Origin: Lachnospiraceae bacterium
GTDB taxonomy: Bacteria; Bacillota; Clostridia; Lachnospirales; Lachnospiraceae
Direction: 5' to 3'
DNA length: 64,000 bases
Assembly: GCA_017613435.1 (NCBI GenBank)
Contig: JAGADU010000078.1
Coordinates: forward strand, 1,725-65,724
In this document: positions 1 through 19,481 of the stretch, piece after piece
Position numbering within the stretch: the stretch's first letter is position 1
Layout of the letters: each line of letters starts with the position of its first letter
Notes under the pieces: model-generated
The model's database searches: none
What the model was told of the DNA's origin: nothing
Seen by the model: the letters and a program-made list of their open reading frames with translations, nothing else
Made by a program: the position numbers and the translations under genes

Positions 1-67
1 CCGAAAATGCCTATTTACCTATGTTTTCGGTAGGTTTTTGTTTCGCTCTTCACGAGCCTCGGATTAC

Positions 68-96
68 TTGAAAAAATCCTTTCCGATTGCTATAAT
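68..96 (+). promoter_or_regulatory. sigma-A promoter for DRTGG/hydrogenase-like operon
   Basis: TTGAAA(68-73)-N17-TATAAT(91-96) with extended -10 TG. Confidence 0.7.
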
Positions 97-193
97 GTTT
101 TATGTATTTTTATGGGGTTACAATTTTCTTTTTTTCTTATTTGTTTTTCTTGATACAATTGTCCCCATTTTTAACTTAATACGGAGGTTTATT

Positions 194-962: not shown

Positions 963-990
963 TTGAACGAATTTTGACTCGGAGACAATT

Positions 991-2277
991 ATGGACCACT
1001 ACGGCAATTCCGTATATTTAATAGAGAATCTCTGCAAAGGCTGCACAAACTGCATCAACAGATGTCCCACCCAGGCAATCCGTGTAAGAAACAACAAAGC
1101 GGTCATCACGCCCGGACGCTGCATCGACTGCGGAGAATGCATAAGAATCTGTCCTCATCACGCCAAAAAAGCCAAAAGGGACTTTATCGACGCCACGGAC
1201 AAATACAAATATACCGTTGCACTTCCGGCTCCCAGTCTCTGCGCTCAGTTTAATAATCTCGAGGATATCAACATCCTTCTTTCCGCAATTAAAAACATCG
1301 GTTTCGACGATGTGTTCGAGGTAAGCGCGGCAGCCGAAATCGTTTCGGAAGAATCAAGGAAATACATTGCCGCTCACAAGGAGCAGTGGCCCCTTATCTC
1401 AACCGCCTGTCCGACCGTTGTTCGCCTGGTTCAGGTTCGTTTCCCGAATCTTTGCGACAAACTTCTGCCCCTTATAACTCCGGCGGAACTTGCGGGCGAG
1501 CTTGCAAGAAAACAGGCCGTTGAAAAAACGGGATTAAAGCCAGAGGAAATCGGTATCTTTTTCCTTTCTCCGTGCGCAAGCAAGGTTACAAGCGTTAAGA
1601 ATCCCATAGGAATGGAAAAAAGCAATATAGACGAAGTATTGGCCATAAAAGACATTTATCCCATACTTCTTGCCGAAATGCCCAAATTCGTCGAACAGCC
1701 CGAGGATTTGTCACGTTCGGGCAAAATCGGTTTGAGCTGGGGAATCACGGGCGGCGAAGTCGGCGGACTTCTCTCCGATTCATGCGTTGCTGCCGACGGT
1801 ATCGAAAACGTGATTCATGTTCTCGAAGACCTCGAGGACGACAAATTCTCGCAGAATCTCGAATTCATCGAATTAAATGCCTGCAACGGCGGATGCGTCG
1901 GCGGCGTAATGAATGTCGAGAACCCTTTTGCGGCAAAAGCAAAAATGCAGCATTTGAGAAAATATCTGCCCGTTTCCGCCGCACGTTCGGATTCTTACGG
2001 AGAATACCATATCGACTGGACGACCGAAGTCGAATACCAGCCCGTTTTCGAGCTTGCGGACAATCTTAAGGAATCGATGGAAAAGATGAACAAGATCGAA
2101 GAACTCACCAAGGAATTCCCGGGTCTTGACTGCGGATGCTGCGGTGCTCCCACATGCAAGGCCCTCGCCGAAGACATCGTAAAAGGAATCGCAAGAAAAC
2201 AGGACTGCATACATGTTCTTCGTGAATACATACACAAACTGTCGGAAGATATCGCTGAACTCAGCGAAGGAATTTAG
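991..2277 (+). CDS. Divergent (group D-like, putative sensory) [FeFe]-hydrogenase with N-terminal 2x[4Fe-4S] and C-terminal FeS domain
   Basis: CKGCTNCINRCP and CIDCGECIRICP; H-cluster-like motifs STACP, SPCASK, ELNACNGGCVGG; C-terminal DCGCCGAPTC. Confidence 0.8.
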   Translation: MDHYGNSVYLIENLCKGCTNCINRCPTQAIRVRNNKAVITPGRCIDCGECIRICPHHAKKAKRDFIDATDKYKYTVALPAPSLCAQFNNLEDINILLSAIKNIGFDDVFEVSAAAEIVSEESRKYIAAHKEQWPLISTACPTVVRLVQVRFPNLCDKLLPLITPAELAGELARKQAVEKTGLKPEEIGIFFLSPCASKVTSVKNPIGMEKSNIDEVLAIKDIYPILLAEMPKFVEQPEDLSRSGKIGLSWGITGGEVGGLLSDSCVAADGIENVIHVLEDLEDDKFSQNLEFIELNACNGGCVGGVMNVENPFAAKAKMQHLRKYLPVSAARSDSYGEYHIDWTTEVEYQPVFELADNLKESMEKMNKIEELTKEFPGLDCGCCGAPTCKALAEDIVKGIARKQDCIHVLREYIHKLSEDIAELSEGI

Positions 2278-2286
2278 AGGTTTATT

Positions 2287-2610
2287 ATGAAAGTGATTGA
2301 ATTGACCAAACTCGATGGTTTCACATCGGTTTCGCTTTTAAAAGATACAGATATTACAGGAGTTTTTTGCTGCGATCTTTTATCCGTAGCCATGGGAAAA
2401 GCTCCCGCAGGAAGCGCATGGGTTACCGTTATGGCCAATGTCAATACTCTGGCCGTTGCTTCCCTTACCGATGTTGCCTGCATTATTCTTGCGGAAGGCG
2501 TTTCTTTTGACGAATCTCTCATCGAAAAAGCGAAGGAGGAAGGAATTGCGGTTTTCAAAACAGACCTTCCTGTTTTCGAAGCCGCTCTTCAAATACATAA
2601 GTCCCTATGA
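2287..2610 (+). CDS. DRTGG-domain protein
   Basis: CCDLLSVAM and WVTVMANVNTLAVASL; typical of this locus. Confidence 0.75.
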   Translation: MKVIELTKLDGFTSVSLLKDTDITGVFCCDLLSVAMGKAPAGSAWVTVMANVNTLAVASLTDVACIILAEGVSFDESLIEKAKEEGIAVFKTDLPVFEAALQIHKSL

Positions 2611-3326
2611 TTCCGCTTCATTACGATCTGCATATTCATTCCTGTCTGTCTCCGTGCGGCGATAACGAATCCACGCCCGGAAACATTGTCGGAATGTCCG
2701 TAATCAAAAATCTCAACGTAATCGCTCTCACCGACCACAATACGTGCAAAAACTGCGCCGCAGCGATGGCCATCGGAAAGGAATACGGAATTACCGTAAT
2801 CCCGGGGATGGAACTGACGACAAGCGAAGAAGTTCACGTTCTCTGTCTTTTTCACACCATCGAGGACGCCATGGGCTTTGATGCGTATGTCGAACCGCGC
2901 ATTTTACAGATTCCAAACGATCCGAAAGCTTTCGGGGATCAGTTATTATGCAACGAAGACGATGAAGTAATCGGAACTTTTCCCACGCTTTTGATTTCGG
3001 CAACCGATATCTCCTTTGACAGAGTTGACGATGTCATAAAACCTTTTAACGGCGTAATGATACCCGCGCATATAGACAAAAACTCTTTTTCGTTAATGTC
3101 CAATCTGGGTTTCGTTCCGCCCGATACGGATTTTAAATGTTTTGAACTGGCAAACATGTCCAATCTTCACAAACTTCAGGAATCCAATCCCTATTTGAAA
3201 AACTGTAATGTCATCACGGATTCCGATGCGCATTACATTGACAGAATAAACGAAGCGGTCAATACTCTTTTCGCCGAATCCGATTCCATCGATGACGTAT
3301 TGGCGGCACTGGTAAGAAAAGTTTAG
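2607..3326 (+). CDS. PHP-domain phosphoesterase
   Basis: DLHIHSCLSPC, ALTDHN, PAHID, SDAH metal-binding motifs; ATGA overlap. Confidence 0.88.
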   Translation: MIPLHYDLHIHSCLSPCGDNESTPGNIVGMSVIKNLNVIALTDHNTCKNCAAAMAIGKEYGITVIPGMELTTSEEVHVLCLFHTIEDAMGFDAYVEPRILQIPNDPKAFGDQLLCNEDDEVIGTFPTLLISATDISFDRVDDVIKPFNGVMIPAHIDKNSFSLMSNLGFVPPDTDFKCFELANMSNLHKLQESNPYLKNCNVITDSDAHYIDRINEAVNTLFAESDSIDDVLAALVRKV

Positions 3327-5538: not shown

Positions 5539-6231
5539 TTATTTTGCTTCTTCCTTTTCAAGGAACATATGAACTCCCGCCGCAAGAGCCGCGCCGGCCA
5601 AAGGTCCCACGATGAAAATCCAAAGAACCTTTATGGGTTCGGGATTGCCGGCAATTGCCGAAACAAGAGCAGGTCCGAAACTTCTCGCGGGGTTAACGCT
5701 TGTTCCGGTAAGTCCGATACCGAAGATATGGATTAGAACAAGTGTAAGACCGATGATAAGTCCGCCAAAAGACCCGTGATTTCCCTTCTTTCCGGTAACG
5801 CCGAGAATTACAAGAACGAAAACAAATGTTAAAATCACTTCAACGATAAGTCCCGTGATAATGCTTCCGTTAACTCCGGCAAGACCGTTGGATCCGAATC
5901 CTCCCGTGGCATCTTCGATTTCCGCAACACCGAAAATCAAAGCGAGGATTCCGCCGCCCAACCATGCACCGAGGCACTGGGCAAGAACATATAATCCGAA
6001 ATCTTTTCCGCTCATTCCCTTGTTCATGAATACGGCAAGGGAAACCGCAGGGTTGATGTGACAACCCGAAACATTGCCCACGCAATAAGCCATTCCGACA
6101 ATTACCAGACCGAATGCCAAAGCGGTAAGCAAATAGCCGTCCCAATGCTCACAACCAGTAAGCATTGCCGTTCCGCAACCGAAGGTTACGAGAACACATG
6201 TACCGATTAATTCCGCAATAAATTTCTTCAT
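5539..6231 (-). CDS. MIP-family aquaporin (AqpZ-like)
   Basis: SGCHINPAVS and SVNPARS NPA motifs; GAGG RBS before MKKFIAE. Confidence 0.92.
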   Translation of the reverse strand: MKKFIAELIGTCVLVTFGCGTAMLTGCEHWDGYLLTALAFGLVIVGMAYCVGNVSGCHINPAVSLAVFMNKGMSGKDFGLYVLAQCLGAWLGGGILALIFGVAEIEDATGGFGSNGLAGVNGSIITGLIVEVILTFVFVLVILGVTGKKGNHGSFGGLIIGLTLVLIHIFGIGLTGTSVNPARSFGPALVSAIAGNPEPIKVLWIFIVGPLAGAALAAGVHMFLEKEEAK

Positions 6232-6287
6232 AGAATCCCTCCTCTTTATATATAAAACCCGCCGGACAGGCGGTATTTTAAACATAA

Positions 6288-6497
6288 TCAGTCTTTGACA
6301 TCGACCGCTTCGGGAAGTTTCCCTTTTTTCCTGAATTTTGCTTTAATCGAATCAAGAATGTTTTCGGGAAGAGAAAAAACTTTCTCAATCAGAAAATCGA
6401 GCGTTTTTTCGACAAAATGAAAAATAATTCTGCTTAAAACAAACACAAATACAAACGGAGCAATCGCACAAAAAACGATAAATGTTAAAGTAATCAT
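6288..6497 (-). CDS. Small hypothetical membrane protein (69 aa)
   Basis: AAAGGAGG RBS 5 nt before ATG; hydrophobic N-terminus. Confidence 0.6.
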   Translation of the reverse strand: MITLTFIVFCAIAPFVFVFVLSRIIFHFVEKTLDFLIEKVFSLPENILDSIKAKFRKKGKLPEAVDVKD

Positions 6498-6596
6498 GCA
6501 CGCCTCCTTTAATTGTTTTTAATCAAATACAAATACGAATTTATTATACAACATATCGAAATTTTTAGCCACTAAGATTATGATTTGAAATTTATG

Positions 6597-6625
6597 TTCT
6601 ACAAAAGATAAAACTGTGCTATAAT
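6597..6625 (+). promoter_or_regulatory. Putative extended -10 promoter of the TM1266/nitrogenase-like/hyp operon
   Basis: TTCTAC-N17-TATAAT(6620-6625) preceded by TG. Confidence 0.55.
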
Positions 6626-6673
6626 TTATGTTCAGGGAAGACAATCCCAAAAAAATAAGGAACGGTAATTTGC

Positions 6674-6922
6674 ATGGAAACACGCGCTGCCGTTATTGCC
6701 ATAATAGTCAAAGACAACGAGTCGGCCAACGAGATCAATTCTCTTTTGCATGAATACCGCGATATCGTTATCGGGCGAATGGGCATTCCCTACAGAGAAA
6801 AAGGAATCAATATCATAAGCGTTGCGGTTGACGCACCTCAGGATACCGTCTCCACTCTGGCGGGAAAAATCGGAAGAATAAAAGGCGTTACGGCCAAAAC
6901 GGTTTATTCTCCCGTCGAATAA
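6674..6922 (+). CDS. TM1266-family 'iron-only hydrogenase system regulator' (ACT/ferredoxin-like fold)
   Basis: 82 aa; METRAAVIAIIV, INSLLHEY..IVIGRMGIPY, LAGKIGRIKGV family signature. Confidence 0.85.
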   Translation: METRAAVIAIIVKDNESANEINSLLHEYRDIVIGRMGIPYREKGINIISVAVDAPQDTVSTLAGKIGRIKGVTAKTVYSPVE

Positions 6923-6951
6923 CTTTCAAAACAAAATAAATCCAAAAAATT

Positions 6952-7045
6952 CTGACGTCGAAACCTGTATGGCAGCTTGAGATGAAAGCGTTTGCAAATA
7001 ATCTTTTTTATGATGCACTCTTTCTATGTCGGAAGGGTGTTTTTT
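6952..7045 (+). promoter_or_regulatory. Putative attenuator / cis-regulatory RNA (terminator plus antiterminator)
   Basis: Terminator stem GCACTCTTTC(7015-7024)/GGAAGGGTGT(7031-7040)+T run; CTGACGTCGAAA(6952-6963) can pair 11/12 (with G:U) with TTTCTATGTCGG(7021-7032). Confidence 0.6.
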
Positions 7046-7114
7046 ATTGGATTTATCCTTTGACGGTTCCCGTGTAACTTTGATTTTCGGCATTAACGAT
7101 TATAGGAAAAACAT

Positions 7115-7864
7115 ATGATTAAATTCGCAATTTACGGAAAAGGAGGGATCGGAAAATCCACCCTCTCTTCAAATCTGAGTGCGGCCTTTGTAAAGAAAGG
7201 CTTAAGAGTCATGCAGATAGGGTGCGATCCCAAAGCGGATTCCACTTCTCTTTTGTGTCCGAAAGAAAAAATAACTTCCGTACTCGATCTGGTAAGAAGT
7301 TCTAAACCCTTTACTCTTCAGGACATGGTAAAAGAGAGCGAATCCAAAGTGTTCTGCGTCGAAGCGGGCGGTCCCGTACCCGGGCTCGGATGTGCGGGAA
7401 GAGGCATCATAAACGCACTCGAATCTCTTGAAAACAAGGGCGCATACGATTATTACAAACCGGACGTGGTTATCTACGACGTACTCGGAGACGTCGTCTG
7501 CGGCGGTTTTACGATGCCCATGAGAAAAGGATTTGCGGATAAGGTGTATATTGTGACATCGGGCGAAAAAATGTCCGTATACGCAGCCGCAAATATCGCG
7601 ATGGCAATCGAAAATTTCAAAAAAAGAGATTACGCCAAACTCGGCGGAATTATTTTAAACTGCAGGGGTGTCGAAAACGAACTCGAAAATGTCGAAACCC
7701 TCGTTAATGACTTTAACACCAAGCTTTCGGCCGTAATTCCCAGAAGCCCTCTTTTCGCCGAAGCCGAAGCGAAAGGAAAAACAATTGTTGAACTTTTCCC
7801 CGAAAGCGATGTATGCAAATCCCTTCTGGAACTTGCCGACAGTATTATCGAAGATTTTAAATAA
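7115..7864 (+). CDS. Nitrogenase-like iron protein 1 (NifH/BchL/CfbC family)
   Basis: [45 protein letters not shown]; both [4Fe-4S] Cys present. Confidence 0.92.
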
Positions 7865-7867
7865 AAT

Positions 7868-9214
7868 ATGTTAAAACAGATTTCTTTAAACGAAAACAAA
7901 ATACCCGAAGGCGTCAGAATTTCCGAAATTGATTTTGACAATCCTTTTTACGACGGACTCCATTACAACCCTCCCGCAAGAGGAGTATGGAATATCGTCC
8001 ATACCGGCATGCTCATTCCCGAAGCGCATCAGATATACGTTTGTGCCCAGGGGTGTCTTCGCGGTGTAATTTTAACCGCCGCGGAAATGAATCGCATGGA
8101 AAACATGAGCTGGGTCGCACTTCGCGAAAAGGACATGTGGAACGGCGAAATGGAATCGAGAGTAATCGAGGGCTGTTCACATATCGTGGACGAAATGGAA
8201 AAACACCCCAAATGCATTCTTGTTTATTTAAGCTGCATGCATTTGTTCGAAGGATGCGATTTTAAAGTAATCGCCGCCGAACTTGAAGAAAGATATCCCG
8301 ACATCGACTGGGTTGACTGCTACATGACCCCCACGATGCGAAAAACTTTCGAACCCGATGTCATGATGAAAAAAAGCCTCTATTCTCCGATCAAAAAACT
8401 TGATTGCGACGAAAAATACATCGGTCTTATCGGGTGCGACCGCGCCACGGATAAAACTTCGGAAATTTATTCGCTCTTAAAAGAAGCAGGCTGCAAAATG
8501 TGGGAGATAACCGAATGCAAAACTTACGAAGATTACCTCTCACTCGGAAAGGCTTCTCTTCTTATCTCCTATCTTCCCGTTGTCGGTTACGCTTCGTCCG
8601 ATCTGACCAAGAGACTGGGCATAGCGCATCTTCCGATGGATTTAAGTTACGATAAAGATGAAATAACTGCCAATCTTAATGCTTTTGCATCTTCTTTGGG
8701 TCTTGACGAAAAAACCGTCGAAAAAATTACGGATATAACAAAAAAAGAAGCCGACGACTCCATGAAAAGAGCTTTGGAGACCATCGGCTCTTCTCCCATA
8801 GCAATCGATGCTTCCGCAACACCCAGACCCATCGGTCTCGCATTGCTTTTAACCGAATACGGATTTAACGTTAAGCGCGTATATACGGATGCTTTCAACA
8901 AAAAAGAAAGAAATGCTTTTGAAAAGTTATGTAAACTAAATCCCGACATCGAGATCTATCCTTCCATGGATCCTTTAATGTTAAATGCCGATCTTGAAAC
9001 AAAAATCGGAGAATCCGAATATTTGTGCATCGGACAAAAAAGCGCATATTTTTGCCAGACAGGAAAATTCGTAAACATCATCGAAGGCGGCGGAATGTAC
9101 GGCTTTGACGGAATAAGGCATCTTGGCGAAATGATGACGGATGCATTTTTAAACGAAAAAGATTTGAAATTAACCATATCATACAAAGGATTGGAGTGTG
9201 AAAGCTGCCTATGA
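7868..9214 (+). CDS. Nitrogenase component 1-like oxidoreductase, subunit A1
   Basis: YVCAQGC, YLSCMHLFEGCD, C-terminal GMYGFDGIRHL; follows NifH-like gene. Confidence 0.8.
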   Translation: MLKQISLNENKIPEGVRISEIDFDNPFYDGLHYNPPARGVWNIVHTGMLIPEAHQIYVCAQGCLRGVILTAAEMNRMENMSWVALREKDMWNGEMESRVIEGCSHIVDEMEKHPKCILVYLSCMHLFEGCDFKVIAAELEERYPDIDWVDCYMTPTMRKTFEPDVMMKKSLYSPIKKLDCDEKYIGLIGCDRATDKTSEIYSLLKEAGCKMWEITECKTYEDYLSLGKASLLISYLPVVGYASSDLTKRLGIAHLPMDLSYDKDEITANLNAFASSLGLDEKTVEKITDITKKEADDSMKRALETIGSSPIAIDASATPRPIGLALLLTEYGFNVKRVYTDAFNKKERNAFEKLCKLNPDIEIYPSMDPLMLNADLETKIGESEYLCIGQKSAYFCQTGKFVNIIEGGGMYGFDGIRHLGEMMTDAFLNEKDLKLTISYKGLECESCL

Positions 9215-10347
9215 ATCAGACCGCAAGAATCATTTCGATATATGCCGCGGATACATCGGGCGTTTGCTCCGCTTTGTACGAATACGGCGGAATGACCGTT
9301 ATTCATGATGCGTCCGGCTGCAATTCCACATATACGACCCATGACGAACCCAGATGGTATGACAAAAAGAGCATGATGTTCATTTCGGGTCTTACCGAAA
9401 AAGACGCCGTAATGGGAAACGATGACAAATTCATTGACGACCTTGTTATAGCCGCAAACGAATTAAAACCCGCGTTCATCGCTCTTTGCGCTTCCCCTCT
9501 TCCCGCCATGATAGGAACGGATCTTGATGCCATTGCATATGCGGTTGAAAGCGAAACTGATATTCCGTCTTTTTGCGTAAAAACAAACGGAATGAATTCG
9601 TATATTTACGGAGCCGGGAATGCATTCCTTGATTTGGCCAAAAGGTTTATCGATAAAAACATGTCCCATAAAACGGACAGATTAAAAGTAAATCTTCTCG
9701 GACTGACTCCTCTGGATTTCCCAAAGACCGAATACGTTAATTCCTTAAAATCCTTCATAAAAGAATCCGGAATGGAATTAAACGCTTCAATCGGAATGGA
9801 GACATCGCTTATTGACATACAAAAAATCGCCGATGCCGATGTCAACCTGATTCTTTCTTCGTCGGGAAAACTTCTGGCGGATTATCTTTTCGAAGAATAC
9901 AACATTCCTTTCGTCAAAGGCGTACCCTACGGAATAAAATTCAGCGAACATATTAAAGAATGCCTTTATAAAGCGGGTGCGGAGAAAATCAATATCGATG
10001 CCACAAAATCATTAAGAGAAGAAGGAAGTACCGCAATACTCGGAGAAAGCATTCTCTCCGCTTCTCTTGCAAGTGCCGTTCTTTCGGATTACGGAATCAA
10101 AGCAAATGTTTTGGAGACGGTCGGCGACGGGGATTTCGATGTTTTAAAGCCTTTTGATTTATCCTGCGACGACGAAAAAATACTTGAAGGCGAGCTTGAA
10201 AAATACGAATGCATCATAGGCGATCCTTTGTTTAAACCGATATGCAAAAACAAAAAATTCATCGCACTTCCCCACGAAGCATTCTCGGGAAGGTGTTTTA
10301 CGAAGAACGCACCGAATATGATAAACAGAAAAATAGAAATATTTTAA
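9211..10347 (+). CDS. Nitrogenase component 1-like oxidoreductase, subunit B1
   Basis: [30 protein letters not shown]; ATGA overlap with A1. Confidence 0.8.
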
Positions 10348-10372
10348 AATATTTTTTCAAACGGAGACACAC

Positions 10373-11140
10373 ATGATTAAGATAGCTGTTTACGGAAAAG
10401 GCGGCATAGGCAAATCGACCGTCACTTCCAATCTTTCGGCCGCATTGGCGCATCTTGGAAAAAGAGTCATACAGATAGGCTGCGATCCCAAAGCGGATTC
10501 AACCGCCAATCTTTTATCCGGAAATCCCGTATTTCCCGTTATGAATTACATGAGGGATTTTGACAGGGAACCCGAATCACTTGAAGAAATTTCAAAGGTC
10601 GGATTCGGAAACGTGCTTTGCATCGAAACCGGCGGACCCACTCCGGGACTCGGCTGTGCCGGAAGGGGCATCATTACAACTTTCTCTCTTCTTGAAGAAC
10701 TGAATCTTTTTGAAAAATACAAACCCGACGCCGTTCTGTACGACGTACTCGGAGACGTTGTCTGCGGAGGATTTGCGGCGCCCATAAGAGAAGGTCTCGC
10801 AAGCAAGGTCATAATCGTAACCTCCGGCGAAAAGATGGCTCTTTATGCGGCAAACAACATAAACAGTGCCGTGGAGAATTTCAGGGAAAGAAGTTATGCA
10901 AGCGTAAGGGGAATCGTTTTTAACAGAAGAAATGTTTTAAACGAGGAAGAAAAAGTTTTTGAATTCGCCAAAAGCCGCAATCTCGAAATAATAGCGGATA
11001 TCCCGAGAAGCGATGACATCATCCGTTTCGAAGACGAGGGAAAAACCGTAATCGAGGGCGATCCGACTCTTGACGTGAGCAAACGTTTTCTCGACCTTGC
11101 ATCGCTTCTTATCGAGGAAGACGAAAAAGAAAACAATTAA
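10373..11140 (+). CDS. Nitrogenase-like iron protein 2 (NifH/BchL/CfbC family)
   Basis: [48 protein letters not shown]. Confidence 0.92.
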
Positions 11141-11154
11141 TTAAAGGATTATTA

Positions 11155-12432
11155 ATGAGCAAAGCTTTTTATCAGACAGCCAAAGAAATAATACAAAACG
11201 GATATGATTCTCTGACTGCGGAACAGGTTTCCAATAAGCATTTGATTTACTCGTCTCCCGCAACACTCTCCTTTAACTCGCCCGGAGCCAAAGGATACGG
11301 TGTAAAACGTGCGGGCCTTGCGGTACCCGAATCCGTAATGCTTCTCGTTTCGCCTTCATGCTGCGGAAGAAACACATCGCTTTTTAAAAGTTCGCCGGAA
11401 TATAAAAGCCGTTTCTTTTTCCAGCTTCTTGACGATACCGACATCGTTACCGGCAGACATTTGATGAAAATAAACGATGCATGCGGCGAAATTCTCTCAT
11501 CTCTTGAAAAAAGACCTTCGGCGATAATGATATGCATAACATGCGTTGACGCTCTTCTCGGTACGGATATGGAGCGAATCTGCCGAAAAGTCACAGAAAC
11601 TCATTCAATTCCCTGCGTTGCATGTTATATGTATGCCTTGACGAGGGAAAAAAGGCTCTCTCCCATGGCTTACGTAAGAACAAGCGTATATTCTCTTTTG
11701 GAAAAGCAAAAAAGAGAAAGCAAAGACATGAACATAATGGGATTTTTCTCTCCCTTAAACGATCGAAGCGAGATTTATCCTCTTTTGAAAAATGCGGGAA
11801 TCGAAAACATCAGGGAACTTGCAAGATGCAAAAAATTCGAGGATTACAAAGAGCTTTCGAAGGCGAATTTCAATCTTTTGCTTAATCCGGAAGCCCGGCA
11901 TGCGGCACAGGATATGCAAAAGCGTTTAAACATTCCTTTTATCGAAATGCTAAGGCTCTATAGGATTGACAAAATACACAATCAATATATGCTTTTGGGC
12001 AATGCTCTCGGAATAAATATCGACGATCGAAAATATTACGAAGAAGCCGAAAAAAGAATTGCCGATTTTAAAAACAAATACGGCGAAATCAGATTTGCTG
12101 TCGGCGAAATATTAAACGGCGATGCGATTGAAATCGCATTAATGCTCGCAAAAGAAGGTTTCAGGGTTGAATGCGTTTTCGCAACGATCGGAGAACTTAA
12201 TTACAGATTCCTAAAAACCCTTTCGGAAGTAAGTCCCGAAACAAAAATTTATTCCAATCTGTCTCCGACGATGCTTAATTACGAAAAAGACGATATCGAC
12301 TGTTATATCGGTTCGGACTGTCTCTATTATTTCCCAGACAAACCGGGTATCGAATGGTGTGAAGAAACCGAGCCCTTCGGGTATCGCGGCGTAATCGATT
12401 TGTTTGATGCATTGGATAAAGTATTGAGGTAA
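11155..12432 (+). CDS. Nitrogenase component 1-like oxidoreductase, subunit A2
   Basis: VSPSCCGR, LDDTDIVTG, ITCVDALLGTD, C-terminal PFGYRGV. Confidence 0.8.
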   Translation: MSKAFYQTAKEIIQNGYDSLTAEQVSNKHLIYSSPATLSFNSPGAKGYGVKRAGLAVPESVMLLVSPSCCGRNTSLFKSSPEYKSRFFFQLLDDTDIVTGRHLMKINDACGEILSSLEKRPSAIMICITCVDALLGTDMERICRKVTETHSIPCVACYMYALTREKRLSPMAYVRTSVYSLLEKQKRESKDMNIMGFFSPLNDRSEIYPLLKNAGIENIRELARCKKFEDYKELSKANFNLLLNPEARHAAQDMQKRLNIPFIEMLRLYRIDKIHNQYMLLGNALGINIDDRKYYEEAEKRIADFKNKYGEIRFAVGEILNGDAIEIALMLAKEGFRVECVFATIGELNYRFLKTLSEVSPETKIYSNLSPTMLNYEKDDIDCYIGSDCLYYFPDKPGIEWCEETEPFGYRGVIDLFDALDKVLR

Positions 12433-12436
12433 TTGC

Positions 12437-13480
12437 ATGAAAAAATTCTTGAAATATATGTCTCCTTTTGCACCGGATCAATCGGGCGCATGCGGTGTCT
12501 TTTACGAACTCGGGGGTCTTATCGTAATCTGCGATGCGGGCGGATGCGCGGGTAATATCTGCGGATTCGACGAACCCAGATGGTTTGACAAAAAAAGCGC
12601 CGTCTTCTCTGCGGGATTAAGAGATATGGACGCAATCATGGGAAGGGATGACAAACTGATTGAAAAACTCTCGACGGCATATGAGCAATTAGGCGGAAAT
12701 TTTGCGCTCATCGTTTCAACACCCGTTCCCGCGATTATCGCAACAGATCTTCGTTCTCTTGAGATAATGGGCGAAAAAAAGCTTGGAATCCCCTGCATTG
12801 CACTCGATTCGACCGGAACAAATTATTACGACTCGGGCGAGGAAAAAGCCTGGTTAAGACTTTTTGAGACTTTTGCGAAAGAATCTTTCGAAAAAATCGA
12901 GAAAAAAACAGCAATTATCGGTGCCACTCCGATTGAAACGGGATTTAAAAACGCCGATTCGCTGAAAAAAATGTCGGAAGAATGTGGTTTACATAATGTA
13001 ACAATCTATTCCATGGGAAGTACTCTCGAAGACGTTAAAAAGGCTTCGGAATGCGAAAAAAACATTGTTATATCGCCTGCGGGATTAAAAGCAGCAAATT
13101 TTCTTAAAAACAAATTCGGCATTCCTTATGAAATCTCATATCCTTTTATCCCGAAGGACATTGTCGAAGAGGCAAAAAAATATTCCGGCAAAAACATACT
13201 CATCATTCATTCGCAGTTTGCCGCTAACGAATTAAGAAAAGAAATCGGATGCATAGAGAAAATAAAATGTGCGACGTTTTTCTTGCAGGATAGGGATTAT
13301 TCTCTTCCCGGAGATATTAAATTAAACGGCGAAGACGATCTTTTCGAATCCGTAAAAAACCAAAATTTCGATCTTATTATCGCCGATTCCGATACCCTGC
13401 CCCTTTTAAAAGCGGCGGGCTTTGACAAAGATTTTATCGACTATCCGGAATTTGCGCTATCGGGAAGAATTTTCGATTAA
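12437..13480 (+). CDS. Nitrogenase component 1-like oxidoreductase, subunit B2
   Basis: ICDAGGC, SAGLRDMDAIMG, STPVPAIIATD; clear paralog of 9211-10347. Confidence 0.8.
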   Translation: MKKFLKYMSPFAPDQSGACGVFYELGGLIVICDAGGCAGNICGFDEPRWFDKKSAVFSAGLRDMDAIMGRDDKLIEKLSTAYEQLGGNFALIVSTPVPAIIATDLRSLEIMGEKKLGIPCIALDSTGTNYYDSGEEKAWLRLFETFAKESFEKIEKKTAIIGATPIETGFKNADSLKKMSEECGLHNVTIYSMGSTLEDVKKASECEKNIVISPAGLKAANFLKNKFGIPYEISYPFIPKDIVEEAKKYSGKNILIIHSQFAANELRKEIGCIEKIKCATFFLQDRDYSLPGDIKLNGEDDLFESVKNQNFDLIIADSDTLPLLKAAGFDKDFIDYPEFALSGRIFD

Positions 13481-13510
13481 ATCCGACAAATTATAATTTG
13501 GAGAAACATT

Positions 13511-15889
13511 TTGAAAACATGTGTAATAAGAGTGTACGGTATCGTTCAGGGCGTCGGTTTTCGCCCCTTTGTAAGCCGCACATGTCTTGACAACAATATA
13601 AAAGGGAGTGTGGCAAACAAAGGCTCCTATGTCGAAATTCACGCACAGGGCGAATCGCTTGAACCTCTGTTTGACGCCTTATCCCACAACCCTCCCAAAA
13701 GATCCGTAATCCTCGAAATAATACATACTTTTGAGGATGAGGATGCGTACGATTCTTTTGAAATCATCGAAAGCGAAAAGGAAGAAGGAGACATATTCGT
13801 ATCCCCCGATATCGCCATATGCGAAGAATGCAAAAAGGAATTGTACACGCCGGGCGACAAAAGATATCTGCATCCTTTTATCAATTGCACGAATTGCGGT
13901 CCTAGACTGACCATACTCGATTCAATGCCCTACGATCGCGAAAGAACAAGCATGGGCGAATTCGAAATGTGCGATTATTGCAAAAACGAATACATCTCCC
14001 CCGCTTCAAGAAGATATGACGCGCAACCCGTATGCTGTAACGAATGCGGACCGAGCTTTTATCTTTTTGACAAAGATATTCTTAAAAACCCCGATTATCT
14101 GTCCCGTAAAAAGGACGCCTTATACAATTCGGATTCTTCGTTATCGGATTTTGCGAAAGCAATCGGAAGCGATGCGATAACAAAGGCAAGAGAATCGATA
14201 ATCGAAGGTAAAATAGTTGCAATAAAAGGCATCGGAGGTTTTCATCTTGCATGCGATGCGACAAACGAAGAAGCCGTAGGGCGCCTTCGAATGTTAAAAA
14301 AGAGACCTATGAAACCCTTCGCCGTAATGATGGATTCCCTCGATACGATCAAAACGTATTGCAAAGCAAACGAATCGCAAAAAGAATTGCTTACCGGTCA
14401 TCAAAAACCGATTGTATTGTTAAAAAAGAAGGATGAAAACGATTTGAAAAAACCGCTTGCACCCTCTCTTGCACCGGACAATCCGACACTCGGAGTAATG
14501 CTTCCGTATGCGCCGATTCAGCTTCTTTTGTTCGATTACAACGACAATTTGAATATGCCGCGCGCCCTTGTCATGACTTCCGGAAACGCATCCGGCGCAC
14601 CGATTTGCAGAACGGACGAGGATGCTTTAAACGAGATATCATCCTTTGCGGATTATATTCTTTCCAACAACAGAAAAATACGTTTAAGGTGCGACGATAC
14701 CGTAACGGACTTTTTCGAAGATAAACCCTACATGATAAGAAGGTCCAGAGGATTCGCGCCCCTTCCCGTAATGATTTCATCCAAAAACAAAGGATGTGTT
14801 TTGGCAATCGGCGGTGAATTGAAAAACACTTTCTGCATAGCAAAAGATTCAATGTTCTATCCTTCGGCATATATCGGAGACATGGAAGATTTGCGAAGTG
14901 TCGATGCATTAAAAGCATCAATCGTTCGTATGGAAACGCTTCTTGAAGCAAAGCCATCGCTGATTGTTTGCGACATGCATCCTCTCTATCACACGACCGA
15001 GGTTGCAAAAGGTATAAATCTCCCTCTTTTGACCGTTCAGCACCACTATGCGCATATTCTTTCGTGCATGGCGGAAAACGATTACCTTGATGACGTAATC
15101 GGGGTTTCGTTTGACGGAACGGGCTACGGAGAGGACGGCACGATATGGGGCGGCGAAATATTAAGATGCGGCCTCAAAGATTATGAAAGATTATCTTTTG
15201 TCGCGCCCTTCATACAATCGGGCGGAGATATTTCCGCAAAAGAAGGCTGGCGAATAGCGGCATCGATTTTAAGAGAAATATCCGATGAAGGTTTAAAAAT
15301 CGCACTTAATCTGAAACTTTGCGAGAAAGCCGAATTCGAATTTCTGGCGCAAATGGCCGAGAAGAACATAAACAGCGTTAAATCGACAAGCGCCGGAAGA
15401 CTCTTTGATGCCGTAAGCGCAATCCTTTCGATAAGACGCTCTTCGACTTTCGAAGGCGAAGCCTCGACATCACTCATGTTCGCCGCAATGCGTTTCGAGG
15501 AAAAAAGCAAAGAAAAATCGGTTGATATCTTTTCCGATTTAGAACCGATAAAAGGAAATGTTTTAAATACAAACGAGCTTGTTTTAAGAATAGCCAAAGC
15601 ATATCTTGAAGGCGAAGACAAAGATTTTCTTGCATATGCGTTCCATGATGAGCTCTCTTCGATGATTGCTCTAAAATGCAGTCTTTGTTCCAAGGAAACA
15701 GGCATTAAAACCATCGCTTTAAGCGGCGGCGTATATCAAAACATTCTTCTTTTGAAACTTACAAAAAGAAAGCTGAAAGAATACGGATTGAATGTGATTC
15801 ACCATAACCTCATTCCTCCCAATGACGGGGGAATCGCCCTCGGGCAGGCGCTCTACGGTTTGTCGCATTTAAACGAAGATTTAAATTAG
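13511..15889 (+). CDS. hypF: Carbamoyltransferase HypF
   Basis: Acylphosphatase GIVQGVGFRPFV, two CxxC..CxxC zinc fingers, KGIGGFHL, QHHYAH, DGTGYG, NDGGIALGQ; TTG start with GGAG RBS. Confidence 0.96.
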   Translation: MKTCVIRVYGIVQGVGFRPFVSRTCLDNNIKGSVANKGSYVEIHAQGESLEPLFDALSHNPPKRSVILEIIHTFEDEDAYDSFEIIESEKEEGDIFVSPDIAICEECKKELYTPGDKRYLHPFINCTNCGPRLTILDSMPYDRERTSMGEFEMCDYCKNEYISPASRRYDAQPVCCNECGPSFYLFDKDILKNPDYLSRKKDALYNSDSSLSDFAKAIGSDAITKARESIIEGKIVAIKGIGGFHLACDATNEEAVGRLRMLKKRPMKPFAVMMDSLDTIKTYCKANESQKELLTGHQKPIVLLKKKDENDLKKPLAPSLAPDNPTLGVMLPYAPIQLLLFDYNDNLNMPRALVMTSGNASGAPICRTDEDALNEISSFADYILSNNRKIRLRCDDTVTDFFEDKPYMIRRSRGFAPLPVMISSKNKGCVLAIGGELKNTFCIAKDSMFYPSAYIGDMEDLRSVDALKASIVRMETLLEAKPSLIVCDMHPLYHTTEVAKGINLPLLTVQHHYAHILSCMAENDYLDDVIGVSFDGTGYGEDGTIWGGEILRCGLKDYERLSFVAPFIQSGGDISAKEGWRIAASILREISDEGLKIALNLKLCEKAEFEFLAQMAEKNINSVKSTSAGRLFDAVSAILSIRRSSTFEGEASTSLMFAAMRFEEKSKEKSVDIFSDLEPIKGNVLNTNELVLRIAKAYLEGEDKDFLAYAFHDELSSMIALKCSLCSKETGIKTIALSGGVYQNILLLKLTKRKLKEYGLNVIHHNLIPPNDGGIALGQALYGLSHLNEDLN

Positions 15890-15902
15890 GAGGATTATAA
15901 AT

Positions 15903-16115
15903 ATGTGTGTAGGTTTACCCGCAAGAGTCGTAAGCGTTAATGACGGTACGGCCATTATCGATGCAAACGGCGCAAAAAGAGACGTTCGCGCGGAACTTCT
16001 CGACGATCTCGAACCCGGCGATTACGTAATGGTTCACGCCGGCGTTGCCATCGCAAAAATCAATTCCGATGACGAAAGCGAAGGAAGCGAAGTCATGGGA
16101 CTTTTATCAATTTAA
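15903..16115 (+). CDS. hypC: HypC/HybG/HupF chaperone
   Basis: N-terminal MCVGLP, GDYVMVHAGVAI; AGGAGG RBS. Confidence 0.95.
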   Translation: MCVGLPARVVSVNDGTAIIDANGAKRDVRAELLDDLEPGDYVMVHAGVAIAKINSDDESEGSEVMGLLSI

Positions 16116-16136
16116 TCTTAAGAACGGAAAATAATC

Positions 16137-17183
16137 ATGAACGAAGTAATAGAAAAAGCCAGAGAAATAATTACGGGGTATGACGGTCCGAAAGTCAGAA
16201 TAATGGAAGTCTGCGGTACCCATACCCATGAAATATTCAGACAGGGAATAAGAAGCCTCCTGCCCGAAAACATCGATTTGATCTCGGGTCCGGGTTGTCC
16301 GGTTTGCGTAACGCCCGTCGGATTTATCGATGAAGCGATTTTCCTTGCAACCGAAAAGAACTGCCTTATTACCACTTTCGGAGATCTTATCAAAGTTCCC
16401 GGAACCGAAATGAATCTCGCAAAAGCCAGAGCAAACGGTGCAAAAATCCGTCCCGTTTACTCTCCCGACGATGCGGTTGAACTCGCAAGGGAAAATCCTG
16501 ACGAAGACGTTGTTTTTCTTTCCGTGGGATTCGAAACCACAACTCCTTCATCCTGCCTTGCGGTCAAAAAAGCAAAAGAACTTAATTTAAATAATTTCTC
16601 TATCCTTACCGCCAACAAATCGATGCCAAACGCCTATCTTAAATTAAAAGGAAGCGCCGACGCATTTATATATCCCGGTCATGTAAATGCAATAACCGGT
16701 AATGCGGTATGCAAAAGCCTTAAAGACAAAGGCGTATCCGGAGTTGTTGCGGGCTTTACCGCAACCGAACTTATGAGTGCGCTTGCCGTTACAATCGAAA
16801 TGTTAAAAAAGGGCGAGCCATTCTTTGTAAACTGTTATCCCAGAGTGGTTAAAGACGAAGGAAACCCTGCGGCAATTAAGCTTATGGACGAAGTAATGGA
16901 ACTTTGCGATACCCAGTGGAGAGGGCTTGGAATTATCGAAAAATCCGGTATGAAATTAAAGGAAGAATTTGCCGATTTCGATTCGAGAATAAAATACAAT
17001 ATTCCGGCAATCGAAGGAAAGCCCAATCCCGGATGCAGATGCGGCGAAGTTTTACAGGGTCACTGCAAACCTTCCGACTGCCCCCTTTTCGGAAAAATAT
17101 GCACTCCCCTTCATGCAATAGGAGCATGCATGGTATCCGATGAAGGCGCATGTTCGGCTTATTATCAATACAATCAAATGTAA
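16137..17183 (+). CDS. hypD: Hydrogenase formation protein HypD
   Basis: MEVCGTHT, GPGCPVC, GFETT, PGHV, C-terminal CRCG..CPLFG.ICTP..GACMVSDEGAC. Confidence 0.96.
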   Translation: MNEVIEKAREIITGYDGPKVRIMEVCGTHTHEIFRQGIRSLLPENIDLISGPGCPVCVTPVGFIDEAIFLATEKNCLITTFGDLIKVPGTEMNLAKARANGAKIRPVYSPDDAVELARENPDEDVVFLSVGFETTTPSSCLAVKKAKELNLNNFSILTANKSMPNAYLKLKGSADAFIYPGHVNAITGNAVCKSLKDKGVSGVVAGFTATELMSALAVTIEMLKKGEPFFVNCYPRVVKDEGNPAAIKLMDEVMELCDTQWRGLGIIEKSGMKLKEEFADFDSRIKYNIPAIEGKPNPGCRCGEVLQGHCKPSDCPLFGKICTPLHAIGACMVSDEGACSAYYQYNQM

Positions 17184-17212
17184 GAAGACAAAAATAAGAA
17201 AGGTATAATCAT

Positions 17213-18217
17213 ATGGAAAACATTATCACTTTGGCTCACGGGTCGGGAAGCATTCAGACTTCGGAACTTATCGACAGCATATTCAAATCGAATTTTGACA
17301 ATCCGTATTTAACCGCCGACGATGCTGCCGTTTTATCTCTCGAAGAAGGAAAAATCGCCATGTCCACCGACGGCTTTATAGTTTCTCCTTACGAATTTCC
17401 CGGGGGAAATATCGGAAAGCTCGCCATCTGCGGCAGCGTAAACGATATAGCATGCATGGGAGCAAAACCCAAATACCTTACATGCTCTTACATTATCGAA
17501 GAAGGTTTTCCCGTTGAAGAACTCGAAAAAATCGCAAAATCCATGGGCGAAACCGCAAGAAAAGCCGGAATACTTATTGTTGCGGGAGATACGAAAGTCG
17601 CAGGCAAAGGTCAGGTAGATAAAATATTTATCACTACAACCGCCGTCGGAAATATTGTCGATGGCGTCAATACATCGGGATCTTTCGCAAAACCCGGGGA
17701 TAAAATCATCGTATCGGGCGATATCGGAAGACACGGCTGCACGATTCTTCTTGCAAGAGGAGAATTCAATATAGATGCGGACATAACAAGCGACTGCGCA
17801 CCGTTATGGAGCAATATAGAAGCGGTATTTAACGAAACAAAGGATATTCATGTAATAAGAGATGCGACAAGGGGCGGTGTCGGAACCGTTCTTTACGAAA
17901 TAGCAAAACAAAGTAACGTCGGAATTTCCATAAACCACGAATCGATTCCCATCGATCCCGGTGTAAAGGGAGTATGCTCGATGTTGGGACTTGAACCCCT
18001 GTATCTGGCATGCGAAGGAAGACTCGTATTCTTCGCACCCGCCGAGGTTGCGGATAAAGTATTAAATGCGTTAAGAGCGTGCGAAAATTCAACAAATGCA
18101 GCAATCATCGGAGAAGTTACCGGGGACAATGTCGGAAAAGTAATACTCAATACGGCGGTAGGCGCCAAAACGATTCTCTCCCGTCCGAGCGGAGAACTGC
18201 TTCCGAGAATATGTTAA
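17213..18217 (+). CDS. hypE: Carbamoyl dehydratase HypE
   Basis: LAHGSG, FPGGNIGKLA, RDATRGG, C-terminal PRIC. Confidence 0.96.
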   Translation: MENIITLAHGSGSIQTSELIDSIFKSNFDNPYLTADDAAVLSLEEGKIAMSTDGFIVSPYEFPGGNIGKLAICGSVNDIACMGAKPKYLTCSYIIEEGFPVEELEKIAKSMGETARKAGILIVAGDTKVAGKGQVDKIFITTTAVGNIVDGVNTSGSFAKPGDKIIVSGDIGRHGCTILLARGEFNIDADITSDCAPLWSNIEAVFNETKDIHVIRDATRGGVGTVLYEIAKQSNVGISINHESIPIDPGVKGVCSMLGLEPLYLACEGRLVFFAPAEVADKVLNALRACENSTNAAIIGEVTGDNVGKVILNTAVGAKTILSRPSGELLPRIC

Positions 18218-18223
18218 ACAAAC

Positions 18224-18253
18224 AAAAAACTGTGGTTTAAACCACAGTTTTTT
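18224..18253. terminator. Bidirectional terminator closing the hyp operon
   Basis: Perfect 30-bp palindrome AAAAAACTGTGGTTTAAACCACAGTTTTTT between convergent genes. Confidence 0.8.
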
Positions 18254-18272
18254 TATTTCGTATAAATCGTCT

Positions 18273-19481
18273 TTAAAATGTTTCGTCGTTAAGTTCCGAA
18301 TAAACGTTTTTGAATGCATTTTTTTCAATTAATTCAAGCATAACTTTTACAATCTCGGGATCGAATTGTTTGCCCGAACCTTCTCTTAATTCATTTACGA
18401 TTTTTTCGGTCGAAAACGCTTTTCTGTAGCATCTGTCGGAATTCATTGCGTCAAACGAATCGGCTACGCAGATGATTCTGGCCACAAGAGGGATTTTGTG
18501 TCCGGCCAAACCTTCGGGATAACCTGTTCCGTCATATCTTTCGTGATGGTATCTCGCACCCTCCACAATGCTCGGAATCGAACTGAAATCCTTAAGAATC
18601 GTGGCACCGTTCGTGGTATGGGTTTTAATCACATCCATTTCCTCTTTGGTCAGCTTTCCGGGTTTATTCAATATCGCATCGGGAATATTGATTTTACCGA
18701 CATCATGCAAAAGCGCAATATAATAAATATTATCGAGATCTTCCACGTCAAATCCGATTCTCTTGGCAATCTTTCTGGTGTAATAAGCCACACGGATCGA
18801 ATGACCTCTTGTATAAGCATCCTTCGCATCGATGAAATTGGTGAAGGTTTTCATTGACTGGATGATAATCTTTCTGTCGTGTTCCTGTCTTATCTGATAC
18901 TGTTTTTCTTTTAAAGCTATGGCAATATTGAGAATCAGGAAAATCAAAAGAAGAAAGATTATCGCAAACAACAGATACAAAAGCGGATAATCTGTAATCT
19001 TAGCTTCGGGTTTTGCCTTTAATACAAAATTCTCGGGCTGATAATCCCCTTTGGTAAAAAGAATGAATCCGAATGTAATATTACCTTTAGGATCGATATG
19101 ATCGTTAAATCCCTGATCGGGCGTATTTATTATGGTAATGGAGCCGTCTTCGTTCTCGTTGATTGTAATATTCCAGGAATCCGTAATCTTTGCGTCCTCG
19201 GGAAGCGTGAGCGTTACCGACCAGTCAATGACTCTGTTGACGGTGTTGTTGTAAAGCGTCACATCGTATTGTTTCGCATGATATCCGCCTTCTTCCCAGC
19301 CTTTTGAAGCGGGCATCTCTATAAACATTTGTGTATTTGCCTTATCATAAACAAACCCGTTTTGCTCTGTATTTATTTTCGGAACGGAATTAACGAGAAT
19401 AAAAAGATACAAAAAACCTGCAACGGTCAGAAAAACCGTCGCAAGACTGACTATCAAAACTGTTTTTCGGTTGCCTAACAT
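18273..19481 (-). CDS. Membrane-anchored HD-GYP phosphodiesterase with extracellular CBM2-like domain
   Basis: TM - YDVTLYNN..DWSVTLTLP..ITDSWN..ITFGFI - TM - HDVGK, HHERYDGTGYP, ADSFDAM. Confidence 0.85.
   Translation of the reverse strand: MLGNRKTVLIVSLATVFLTVAGFLYLFILVNSVPKINTEQNGFVYDKANTQMFIEMPASKGWEEGGYHAKQYDVTLYNNTVNRVIDWSVTLTLPEDAKITDSWNITINENEDGSITIINTPDQGFNDHIDPKGNITFGFILFTKGDYQPENFVLKAKPEAKITDYPLLYLLFAIIFLLLIFLILNIAIALKEKQYQIRQEHDRKIIIQSMKTFTNFIDAKDAYTRGHSIRVAYYTRKIAKRIGFDVEDLDNIYYIALLHDVGKINIPDAILNKPGKLTKEEMDVIKTHTTNGATILKDFSSIPSIVEGARYHHERYDGTGYPEGLAGHKIPLVARIICVADSFDAMNSDRCYRKAFSTEKIVNELREGSGKQFDPEIVKVMLELIEKNAFKNVYSELNDETF

Follow-up and report, generated by a model that had tools for sequence, protein, structure and literature searches.

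A conserved operon of two nitrogenase-like modules and HypFCDE as a candidate HydG-independent route to the H-cluster of [FeFe] hydrogenases

The locus analyzed here lies in a stretch of 64,000 nucleotides (nt; hereafter the window) from contig JAGADU010000078.1 (positions 1,725 to 65,724 of the forward strand) of the assembly GCA_017613435.1, a metagenome-assembled genome (MAG) of a Lachnospiraceae bacterium, which amounts to 2.1 Mb in 146 contigs and is 84% complete. The open reading frame (ORF) map of the window shows ten genes on the + strand following a gene for a small TM1266-like protein, in the order H1-A1-B1-H2-A2-B2-hypF-hypC-hypD-hypE, i.e. two modules each made of a NifH-like ATPase (H) and a pair of nitrogenase component-1-like proteins (A and B), followed by the genes for four Hyp proteins (Table 1). 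The intergenic distances listed in a preliminary description of this DNA, made from the sequence alone, are exact (3, -4, 25, 14, 4, 30, 13, 21 and 29 nt), and the palindrome that it placed at position 18224 is a strong bidirectional terminator. Its statement that no terminator comes earlier holds within the ten genes, terminator-like matches inside genes being near the shuffle level (23 against 16.0 +/- 4.1 expected from shuffles), but not for the region ahead of H1, where a hairpin resembling a terminator, followed by a T run, is found between the TM1266-like gene and H1, upstream of all ten genes. The 30-nt gap between B2 and hypF carries a GGAG ribosome-binding site ahead of the TTG start of hypF, and the promoter scan listed no + strand promoter in it. 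A search of positions 6200-18500 against Rfam recovered no family, just sub-threshold matches to small RNAs on the terminator.

Table 1. Features of the operon and its surroundings in the window, with the transporter-linked variant loci of other genomes (aa, amino acids)
Feature	Position	Strand	Basis or remarks
HydS-type/HydA-like protein, 428 aa	991-2277		two Fer4, Fe_hyd_lg_C and PF04060; 4.4 kb upstream of the operon
Sigma-70-like promoter, TCTACA-16-TATAAT with TG extension	6598-6625	+	consensus match alone; best + strand site, before the TM1266-like gene
TM1266-like gene	6674-6922	+	Pfam, NCBIfam
Leader element: CTGACGTCGAAA (6952-6963), TTGAGATGAAAG (6977-6988), hairpin with T run (7015-7040)	6952-7040	+	
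H1, NifH-like ATPase, module 1	7115-7864	+	PF00142, 284.6 bits
A1, very divergent alpha-like component-1 protein	7868-9214	+	PF00148, 70.5 bits
B1, beta-like partner of A1; start overlaps A1 stop by 4 nt	9211-10347	+	PF00148, 102.5 bits
H2, NifH-like ATPase, module 2	10373-11140	+	PF00142, 286.8 bits
A2, NifE/NifD-like alpha-type protein	11155-12432	+	PF00148, 97.8 bits
B2, beta-like partner of A2	12437-13480	+	PF00148, 75.9 bits
hypF, full-length carbamoyltransferase, TTG start	13511-15889	+	TIGR00143, 729 bits
hypC, chaperone	15903-16115	+	TIGR00074, 63.9 bits
hypD, scaffold	16137-17183	+	TIGR00075, 397.9 bits
hypE	17213-18217	+	TIGR02124, 429 bits
Bidirectional intrinsic terminator, 13-bp stem, T runs on both strands, operon end	18224-18253	.	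terminator scan
Transporter-linked variant loci	L068:5844-14812; L062:1263-10846; L071; L081:6636-13826; L104		

The six nitrogenase-like proteins were placed by means of the NCBIfam cut-offs and comparisons with the PDB. H1 and H2 belong to the Fe-protein family PF00142 and A1, B1, A2 and B2 to the component-1 superfamily PF00148 (Pfam cut-off 28.6 bits); these four are the sole PF00148 genes of the window genome. NifH-type proteins carry out ATP-driven low-potential electron transfer, and H1 keeps the P-loop (GKGGIGKST) and both cysteines of the [4Fe-4S] cluster (C93 and C129), the equivalents of which are also kept in H2, with which it shares 52.6% identity. Both proteins score under all NCBIfam cut-offs, namely those for NifH (299 against 394 bits), CfbC (286-299 against 402), BchL (182-197 against 345) and BchX (154-197 against 331). 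Similarly, the PF00148 proteins reach 27-70 bits against a BchB cut-off of 490, the NifD scores of B1, A2 and B2 are 26-37 bits against a cut-off of 654, and A1 shows no NCBIfam match of any kind. Sequence profile searches with A1 reached VnfD at an E-value of only 8e-6 and the MarD structures at one of only 6e-4; the nearest PDB matches of A2 are NifD and NifE (8e-9 to 2e-6), and that of B1 is BchB (1.6e-7). An AlphaFold model of A1 (predicted local distance difference test score, pLDDT, 78; predicted template-modeling score, pTM, 0.79) displays the three-domain fold of nitrogenase component 1 and is equidistant from NifDK, AnfDK, VnfDK, NifEN, MarDK and BchN (template-modeling score ~0.6, 13-17% identity). 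Given that A1 and A2 share 26% and B1 and B2 30% identity, the duplication of the module appears to be old.

Cysteine conservation, counted across 59-84 orthologues (84 for A1), further sets these proteins apart. A1 conserves C59, C63, C123, C151, C217 and a C-terminal C444-x-x-C447 pair, of which C123 aligns with the NifD Cys154-type position in VnfD; the sequence alignments of A1 start at residue 85-96, beyond C59 and C63. Conserved in the remaining proteins are C19 and C37 of B1, C69, C70, C127, C130, C143 and C225 of A2, and C32, C37 and C42 of B2, along with a DEPRW motif in both B1 and B2. The position of the cysteine that binds the iron-molybdenum (FeMo) cofactor (Cys275) is occupied by L236 in A1 (in the VnfD alignment) and by N244 in A2, and A1 and A2 are therefore not nitrogenases. 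The most conserved motifs of A1, i.e. NPPARGVWNIVHTGM, TPTMRK and the C-terminal KGxxCxxCL (residues 29-46, 154-161 and 438-448; window positions 7952-8005, 8327-8350 and 9179-9211), coincide with the least confident parts of its model (pLDDT below 50), as would be expected for metal- or partner-binding loops that become ordered only in a complex.

In their ATPase-alpha-beta gene order, occurring twice in tandem as in nifHDK-nifEN, the two modules resemble NifH with NifEN or NifDK, a resemblance that extends to the NifD/NifE matches of A2 and the fold predicted for A1; they differ from these in the 13-17% identity, the scores under the Nif cut-offs and the lack of NifB and of any further PF00148 gene. 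The characterized nitrogenase-like reductases (BchLNB, BchXYZ, CfbCD and MarBHDK), which are ATP-driven low-potential reductases, belong to the same superfamily, and MarDK (PDB 9d9u and 9fmg) and BchN are among the fold matches of A1. Unlike them, the operon has no nearby genes for tetrapyrrole synthesis or sulfur salvage, and its cysteine pattern, including the C-terminal CxxC of A1, is a different one. Accordingly, a true nitrogenase (Nif, Vnf or Anf) was rejected on the replaced Cys275 and the NifH and NifD scores under cut-off, and DPOR/COR, CfbCD and MarBHDK were rejected on scores under their family cut-offs and on the hyd and hyp genes in the neighborhood. Judged by family scores, the proteins lie outside every characterized nitrogenase-like family, and their placement outside Nif, Bch, Cfb and Mar in the preliminary description is borne out by these scores and by the weak profile matches to PDB entries.

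Three of the four Hyp proteins pass the NCBIfam equivalog cut-offs (HypF 729 against 466 bits, HypD 397.9 against 192.8, HypE 429 against 251.6), and HypC passes the TIGR00074 model of the HypC/HybG/HupF subfamily (63.9 against 48 bits). HypF shows the acylphosphatase domain, two Zn fingers and the YrdC and Kae1 domains in Pfam; Cys2 and His45 of HypC are invariant in 17 orthologues; HypD contains the CGTHTH, GPGCPVC and C-terminal Cys motifs; and HypE ends in PRIC, whose cysteine is the cyanide carrier. By these motifs the Hyp proteins are canonical, with all catalytic motifs retained. In [NiFe]-hydrogenase maturation the cyanide is derived from carbamoyl phosphate by HypF and HypE, and the Fe(CN)2CO unit is put together by HypC and HypD. 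The operon proteins thus resemble the HypCDEF of that system in passing its cut-offs and keeping its defining motifs, but they differ in that the hyp genes invariably come fused with a nitrogenase-like module, and in that the [NiFe] large subunit, HypA, HypB and NuoD/EchE-like proteins are missing here and in most of the genomes with this locus. Five genomes (the window genome, Ruminococcus albus AR67, Lachnospiraceae AC2031, C. aromativorans and a closed Synergistaceae chromosome) gave no match over cut-off to the [NiFe] large subunit (PF00374), HypA (PF01155), HypB (TIGR00073) or NuoD/EchE-like proteins (PF00346). A complete [NiFe]-hydrogenase maturation system was hence set aside for these genomes, and the absence of a [NiFe] client noted in the preliminary description extends from the window genome to the four references, the closed chromosome included. 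Among 50 genomes carrying an A1 locus (hereafter carriers), 45 have no PF00374 match whatever and four show an N-terminal match of 70 residues in possibly Ech-like ORFs some 360 aa long; the one carrier with a full-length PF00374 protein has an A1 locus without hyp genes.

A search for relatives of A1 in a collection with one genome per species recovered 549 loci, and the window proteins were mapped onto the best 80 of these, of which 58 cover 9.5 kb or more beyond the start of A1. H1-A1-B1-H2-A2-B2-HypF-HypC-HypD occur in the same order in 48 of these 58 long loci, across four phyla, with complete same-order loci in Lachnospiraceae, Eubacterium, Ruminococcus (including two R. albus strains) and Clostridium, as well as in Victivallales/Lentisphaeria, Spirochaetaceae and Synergistaceae. 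The linkage of nitrogenase-like and hyp genes is therefore conserved, and the objection allowed for in the preliminary description, that it might be peculiar to this genome, fails. In most relatives TM1266 and H1 are 2.5-6 kb apart, and in two loci (L015 and L066) the genes in between encode bona fide HydF (553 against 325.6 bits) and HydE (547-571 against 254.6 bits). The general form of the operon is thus TM1266-hydF-hydE-H1A1B1-H2A2B2-hypFCDE. In the window genome HydE lies on contig C36 and HydF on C111, this lineage having relocated hydE and hydF away from the operon. In the R. albus AR67 operon three ORFs of 168, 222 and 214 aa are present between hydF and hydE (L066:6346-8180); they have no Pfam or NCBIfam match, and tblastn found no counterpart in the window genome.

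Permuted operons were also observed (L102:1733-13028, L103 and L105). The form in genus g72 reads H2-A2-B2-hypFCDE-TM1266-A1-B1-hydF and has a single NifH-like gene, so that one NifH-like protein may serve both component-1 pairs; in genome G071 the order is H2A2B2-hypFCDE-H1A1B1. In G047 the two modules are at separate loci, with A2B2 still beside hypFCDE.

The distribution of HydG bears on the function of this operon. In the canonical pathway HydG makes an Fe(CO)2(CN)Cys synthon from tyrosine, which HydE and HydF process. HydG over the cut-off (TIGR03955, 312 bits) was found in none of the 50 carriers, all of which encode [FeFe] hydrogenase (PF02906), usually in multiple copies and in several HydA types, the main 580-615 aa enzymes among them. 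Likewise, the window genome (84% complete) has HydE, HydF and HydA-like genes and no HydG over cut-off, i.e. a canonical HydEFG system is not what it encodes. A divergent HydG in the carriers was considered and rejected: the best hits (175-228 bits) span only HydG positions 31-382, 33 of the 50 carriers have no HydG hit at E <= 1e-30, and the HydG-like best hit of R. albus AR67, the one tested, is ThiH (506 bits).

As a control, 300 genomes were sampled evenly from the same class, Clostridia. HydG exceeds the cut-off in 186 of these, and true A1 relatives (33-43% identity) occur in seven, every one of which is HydG-negative and HydF-positive. HydF is present in just 13 of the 113 HydG-negative Clostridia, and seven of these 13 are the A1 carriers; within the subset G051-G110, HydG is found in 33 of 34 HydF-positive genomes, the lone exception again being an A1 carrier. 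A second phylum, sampled as the order around a Victivallales carrier (G005), gave a similar picture, with HydG in 53 of 61 genomes and A1 in two, both HydG-negative. Thus HydG never co-occurs with a true A1 gene among the 50 carriers, the 300 Clostridia and the 61 genomes of the Victivallales order. Distant A1-like hits with 29-30% identity (G245, G283 and G338) were set aside, as they probably represent a different nitrogenase-like subfamily; HydG is present in G245, and G283 and G338 lack both HydF and HydG. Both states occur within genus g72, where one genome (G208) has TM1266-hydE-hydG-hydF and two others (G262 and G120) have the permuted operon and no hydG. The order TM1266-hydE-hydG-hydF in a congener of carrier species is that of locus L100. 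The cluster occupies the place of hydG in the canonical TM1266-hydE-hydG-hydF operons, and this switch between HydG and the cluster recurs in separate lineages. With those operons it shares the TM1266-family first gene, the HydE and HydF partners and the presumed client HydA; it differs from them in that HydG is replaced by six nitrogenase-like genes and hypFCDE.

A specialized HydF in the carriers was likewise rejected. In the HydF tree the proteins of the carriers group together (7 changes, compared with 23.7 in shuffles), though without exclusivity, and those of the window genome and G071 are placed elsewhere. As the HydFs of the carriers do not form a separate lineage, this fits an ordinary intermediate being handed to ordinary HydE and HydF.

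Thus, the cluster is restricted to genomes with HydA, HydE and HydF and without HydG, mostly also without [NiFe] hydrogenase, HypA and HypB. The presence of hydE and hydF in the operons of relatives, of [FeFe] hydrogenases in all carriers and of HydG in none indicates that its purpose is H-cluster maturation. We accordingly assign a probability of roughly 0.6 to the joint reading that the operon replaces HydG, providing a HydG-independent means of making the Fe-CO/CN building block for the [2Fe] subsite of the H-cluster, and that it works with ordinary HydE and HydF, which in the window MAG are encoded on other contigs. In the scheme that would follow, HypF and HypE would make cyanide from carbamoyl phosphate and HypC and HypD would assemble it on iron; H2-A2-B2 would supply low-potential chemistry, most plausibly extra CO (e.g. 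from CO2) or reduction of the iron center; and H1-A1-B1, as a NifEN-like scaffold or reductase, would turn the CN/CO-iron product into what HydE and HydF use as substrate. Control of the operon would fall to the TM1266-like protein, which, together with the leader and its terminator, would sense an intermediate of the pathway.

A second gene order, seen in 7 of the 58 long loci and additionally in L071 and G306 (locus L104), suggests how these modules may be divided functionally. It consists of TM1266, a FecCD/BtuC-type permease, an ABC-type ATPase fused to TM1266, hydE in some cases, H1-A1-B1, a class III binding protein (encoded at L081:12663-13829 in one such locus) and, in some cases, hydF. 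Four genomes with such transporter-linked loci have HydF and HydA, no HydG, no HypD and only two PF00148 genes. HypD was not found in G306, an A1-positive, HydG-negative genome that is 99% complete, nor in G158, a 100% complete A1 carrier without HydG. H2A2B2 thus always travels with hypFCDE, and some genomes have an importer of the metal-chelate class in its stead. The one module shared by every HydG-less system is H1A1B1, which suggests that it is the core and that H2A2B2 with HypFCDE is one of two feeder modules. Extending this, it is conceivable, albeit doubtful, that H1A1B1 with HydE and HydF forms an invariant core fed either by synthesis through H2A2B2/HypFCDE or by BtuCD/FecCD-type import, the intermediate being a diffusible iron-carbonyl-cyanide species or a close precursor made by some gut and rumen bacteria and scavenged by others. 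If true, this would represent the first case in nature of a salvage route for a precursor of an organometallic hydrogenase cofactor, with TM1266 as its sensor.

The TM1266-like protein of the window scores 111.6 bits against PF21699 and 114 bits against TIGR03959, exceeding the equivalog cut-off of the latter (60.8), and is homologous to PDB entry 2nzc (E-value 7e-14); it is a putative regulator or ligand sensor of [FeFe]-hydrogenase systems. A TM1266 gene lies upstream of the cluster in 62 of the 80 related loci, and the family heads hydE-hydG-hydF in L100 just as it heads the nitrogenase-like/hyp operon in the window. In the transporter-linked loci it is a C-terminal fusion on the ABC ATPase. 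The MetN and ModC importers have regulatory ligand-binding domains at an ATPase position like that of the fused TM1266, an analogy which suggests that TM1266 proteins may sense a compound of the pathway. Downstream of TM1266 genes a conserved leader element was also detected. Its first box, CTGAYRYCRAAA, is present in 46 of 75 such regions across phyla, and both boxes, CTGAYRYCRAAA followed by TTGAGRYRGAAG, occur in this order in 41 of the 75, from several phyla (conserved leaders in L006, L010, L015, L031, L037, L038, L058, L061, L066, L074, L081 and the window). The 5' arm or loop of the leader hairpin is able to pair with the first box. The leader is not present in L100, where TM1266 abuts hydE; the leader fold does not exceed shuffles in stability (z -0.67), and it matches no Rfam family. 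The leader looks like an uncharacterized attenuator or riboswitch, and possibly it is the target of TM1266.

The surroundings of the operon in the window include a sensory-type [FeFe]-hydrogenase cluster upstream (2-3326), in which the HydS-type protein is accompanied by two DRTGG proteins, a HATPase_c_2 kinase-like protein and a PHP-domain protein. HydA-like ORFs of 432-438 aa with an equally weak PF02906 score (~113 bits) are found in four close relatives. Such an ORF lies about 8 kb upstream of the nitrogenase-like cluster in Lachnospiraceae bacterium G41. Downstream, the convergent neighbor (18273-19481, - strand) encodes an HD-GYP-type (HD_5/HD) protein with a CBM_2-like domain at residues 71-154 (31 bits, Pfam).

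The preliminary description had viewed the A and B proteins as the end users of a Hyp-made center, i.e. as a free-standing new metalloenzyme, whereas the hyd linkage and the HydG pattern point to H-cluster maturation. For a CN/CO-ligated iron center that is built by HypFCDE and inserted into the A and B proteins, giving a novel metalloenzyme that is driven by ATP and has no part in hydrogenase maturation, one may adduce the position of hypFCDE directly after A2B2 in the 48 complete loci and its adjacency in permuted and split loci too, the missing [NiFe] client, and the invariant C-terminal CxxC and further conserved cysteines of A1, which are not P-cluster-type ligands. Moreover, as A1 and A2 do not have the FeMo-cofactor cysteine, any cofactor would be of another kind. 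Such an enzyme seems unlikely to us, for it leaves unexplained the hydE and hydF genes inside the operon, the presence of HydA in all carriers and of HydG in none, and the association of H1A1B1 with hydE and hydF in HypD-less genomes, which argues against A1B1 as an obligate client of Hyp. The other suggestion of the preliminary description, that the reductases feed the Hyp pathway (e.g. with CO derived from CO2), would agree with HydG replacement. It is rather improbable that the operon acts in [FeFe] maturation at a different step, by modifying the [2Fe] cofactor or serving particular hydrogenases such as the HydS-type, with HydG being otherwise dispensable, e.g. through free CO and cyanide. 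The HydS-type gene near the operon, the low-level HydG-independent activation reported with free CO and cyanide (literature reviewed in PMC9431212) and the genomes of the architecture without Hyp (type II), which have no known source of cyanide, would accord with this; but the strict mutual exclusion, which concerns HydG but neither HydE nor HydF, is as expected if HydG is replaced, and the HydA types of the carriers extend to the main enzymes. Least credible, and by our estimate highly improbable, is that a [NiFe] hydrogenase has been overlooked and is the client of the hyp genes, which would then stand beside the nitrogenase-like genes without functional meaning. The incompleteness of the window MAG and the few PF00374 matches, partial in four carriers and full-length in one, leave some room for it; against this stand the 45 carriers with no such match, the failure to find HypA, HypB or PF00346 in five genomes, one of them a closed chromosome, the gene order kept across four phyla, and the hyp-less locus of the sole carrier with a full large subunit.

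Several points also weigh against HydG replacement by the operon. Six Clostridia have HydF and neither HydG nor A1 (G113, G131, G189, G215, G112 and G170); four of these have no PF00148 gene, G113 and G112 have a true nitrogenase, and G113 additionally has HypD. Gaps in the assemblies could account for them, as could another route that does without HydG. HypCD builds Fe(CN)2CO, but HydE uses Fe(CO)2CN, so that additional, hypothetical chemistry is required, and the type II architectures leave the source of cyanide there unexplained. The support is genomic correlation throughout, and the roles given to A1B1 and A2B2 rest solely on genes traveling together. Furthermore, related genomes are not independent, the independent switches between HydG and the cluster numbering a handful rather than dozens, and many of the genomes are MAGs, the window's among them.

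Related genes have been noticed before. Dos Santos et al. 2012 (PMC3464626) described two closely linked NifHEN-like copies in Coprococcus catus and Dorea longicatena, with two conserved cysteines in the alpha-like and one in the beta-like protein, and mentioned an association with hydrogenase maturation proteins in one speculative sentence. By this description they are of the same clade and gene association as the operon, but that paper draws no link to HydE and HydF or to the absence of HydG and does not include the transporter-linked variant. A 2022 survey of Clostridium acetogens (PMC9431212) left a missing hydG and the presence of hypCDEF without hypAB unexplained and did not connect them to nitrogenase-like genes, and Greening et al. 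2024 (PMC11216029) considered an alternative [FeFe] maturation pathway likely but unknown. In our search of the literature on nitrogenase-like genes with Hyp, HydE/HydF, TM1266 or HydG only the sentence of Dos Santos et al. turned up, and no paper proposing a replacement of HydG was found.

Maturation of [FeFe] hydrogenases without a full HydEFG set is an acknowledged question (PMC11216029, PMC9431212), for which the operon offers a concrete candidate route; its occurrence in hundreds of species, among them rumen and gut bacteria in culture, opens this question to direct tests. Cultured carriers include R. albus, Lachnospiraceae bacterium G41 and AC2031, Clostridium aromativorans and Hominimerdicola aceti. 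If HydG replacement is correct, nitrogenase-like ATP-driven reductases would gain a role in the assembly of organometallic cofactors, HypCDEF would serve iron-only hydrogenases too, and the origin of the CO ligand under anaerobic conditions, a long-standing puzzle, may become approachable. It would also provide a set of tools with which other hosts could produce [FeFe] hydrogenases independently of tyrosine. Given that major H2 producers of the rumen (R. albus and Lachnospiraceae) carry the system, it would further be of relevance to H2 turnover in this environment.

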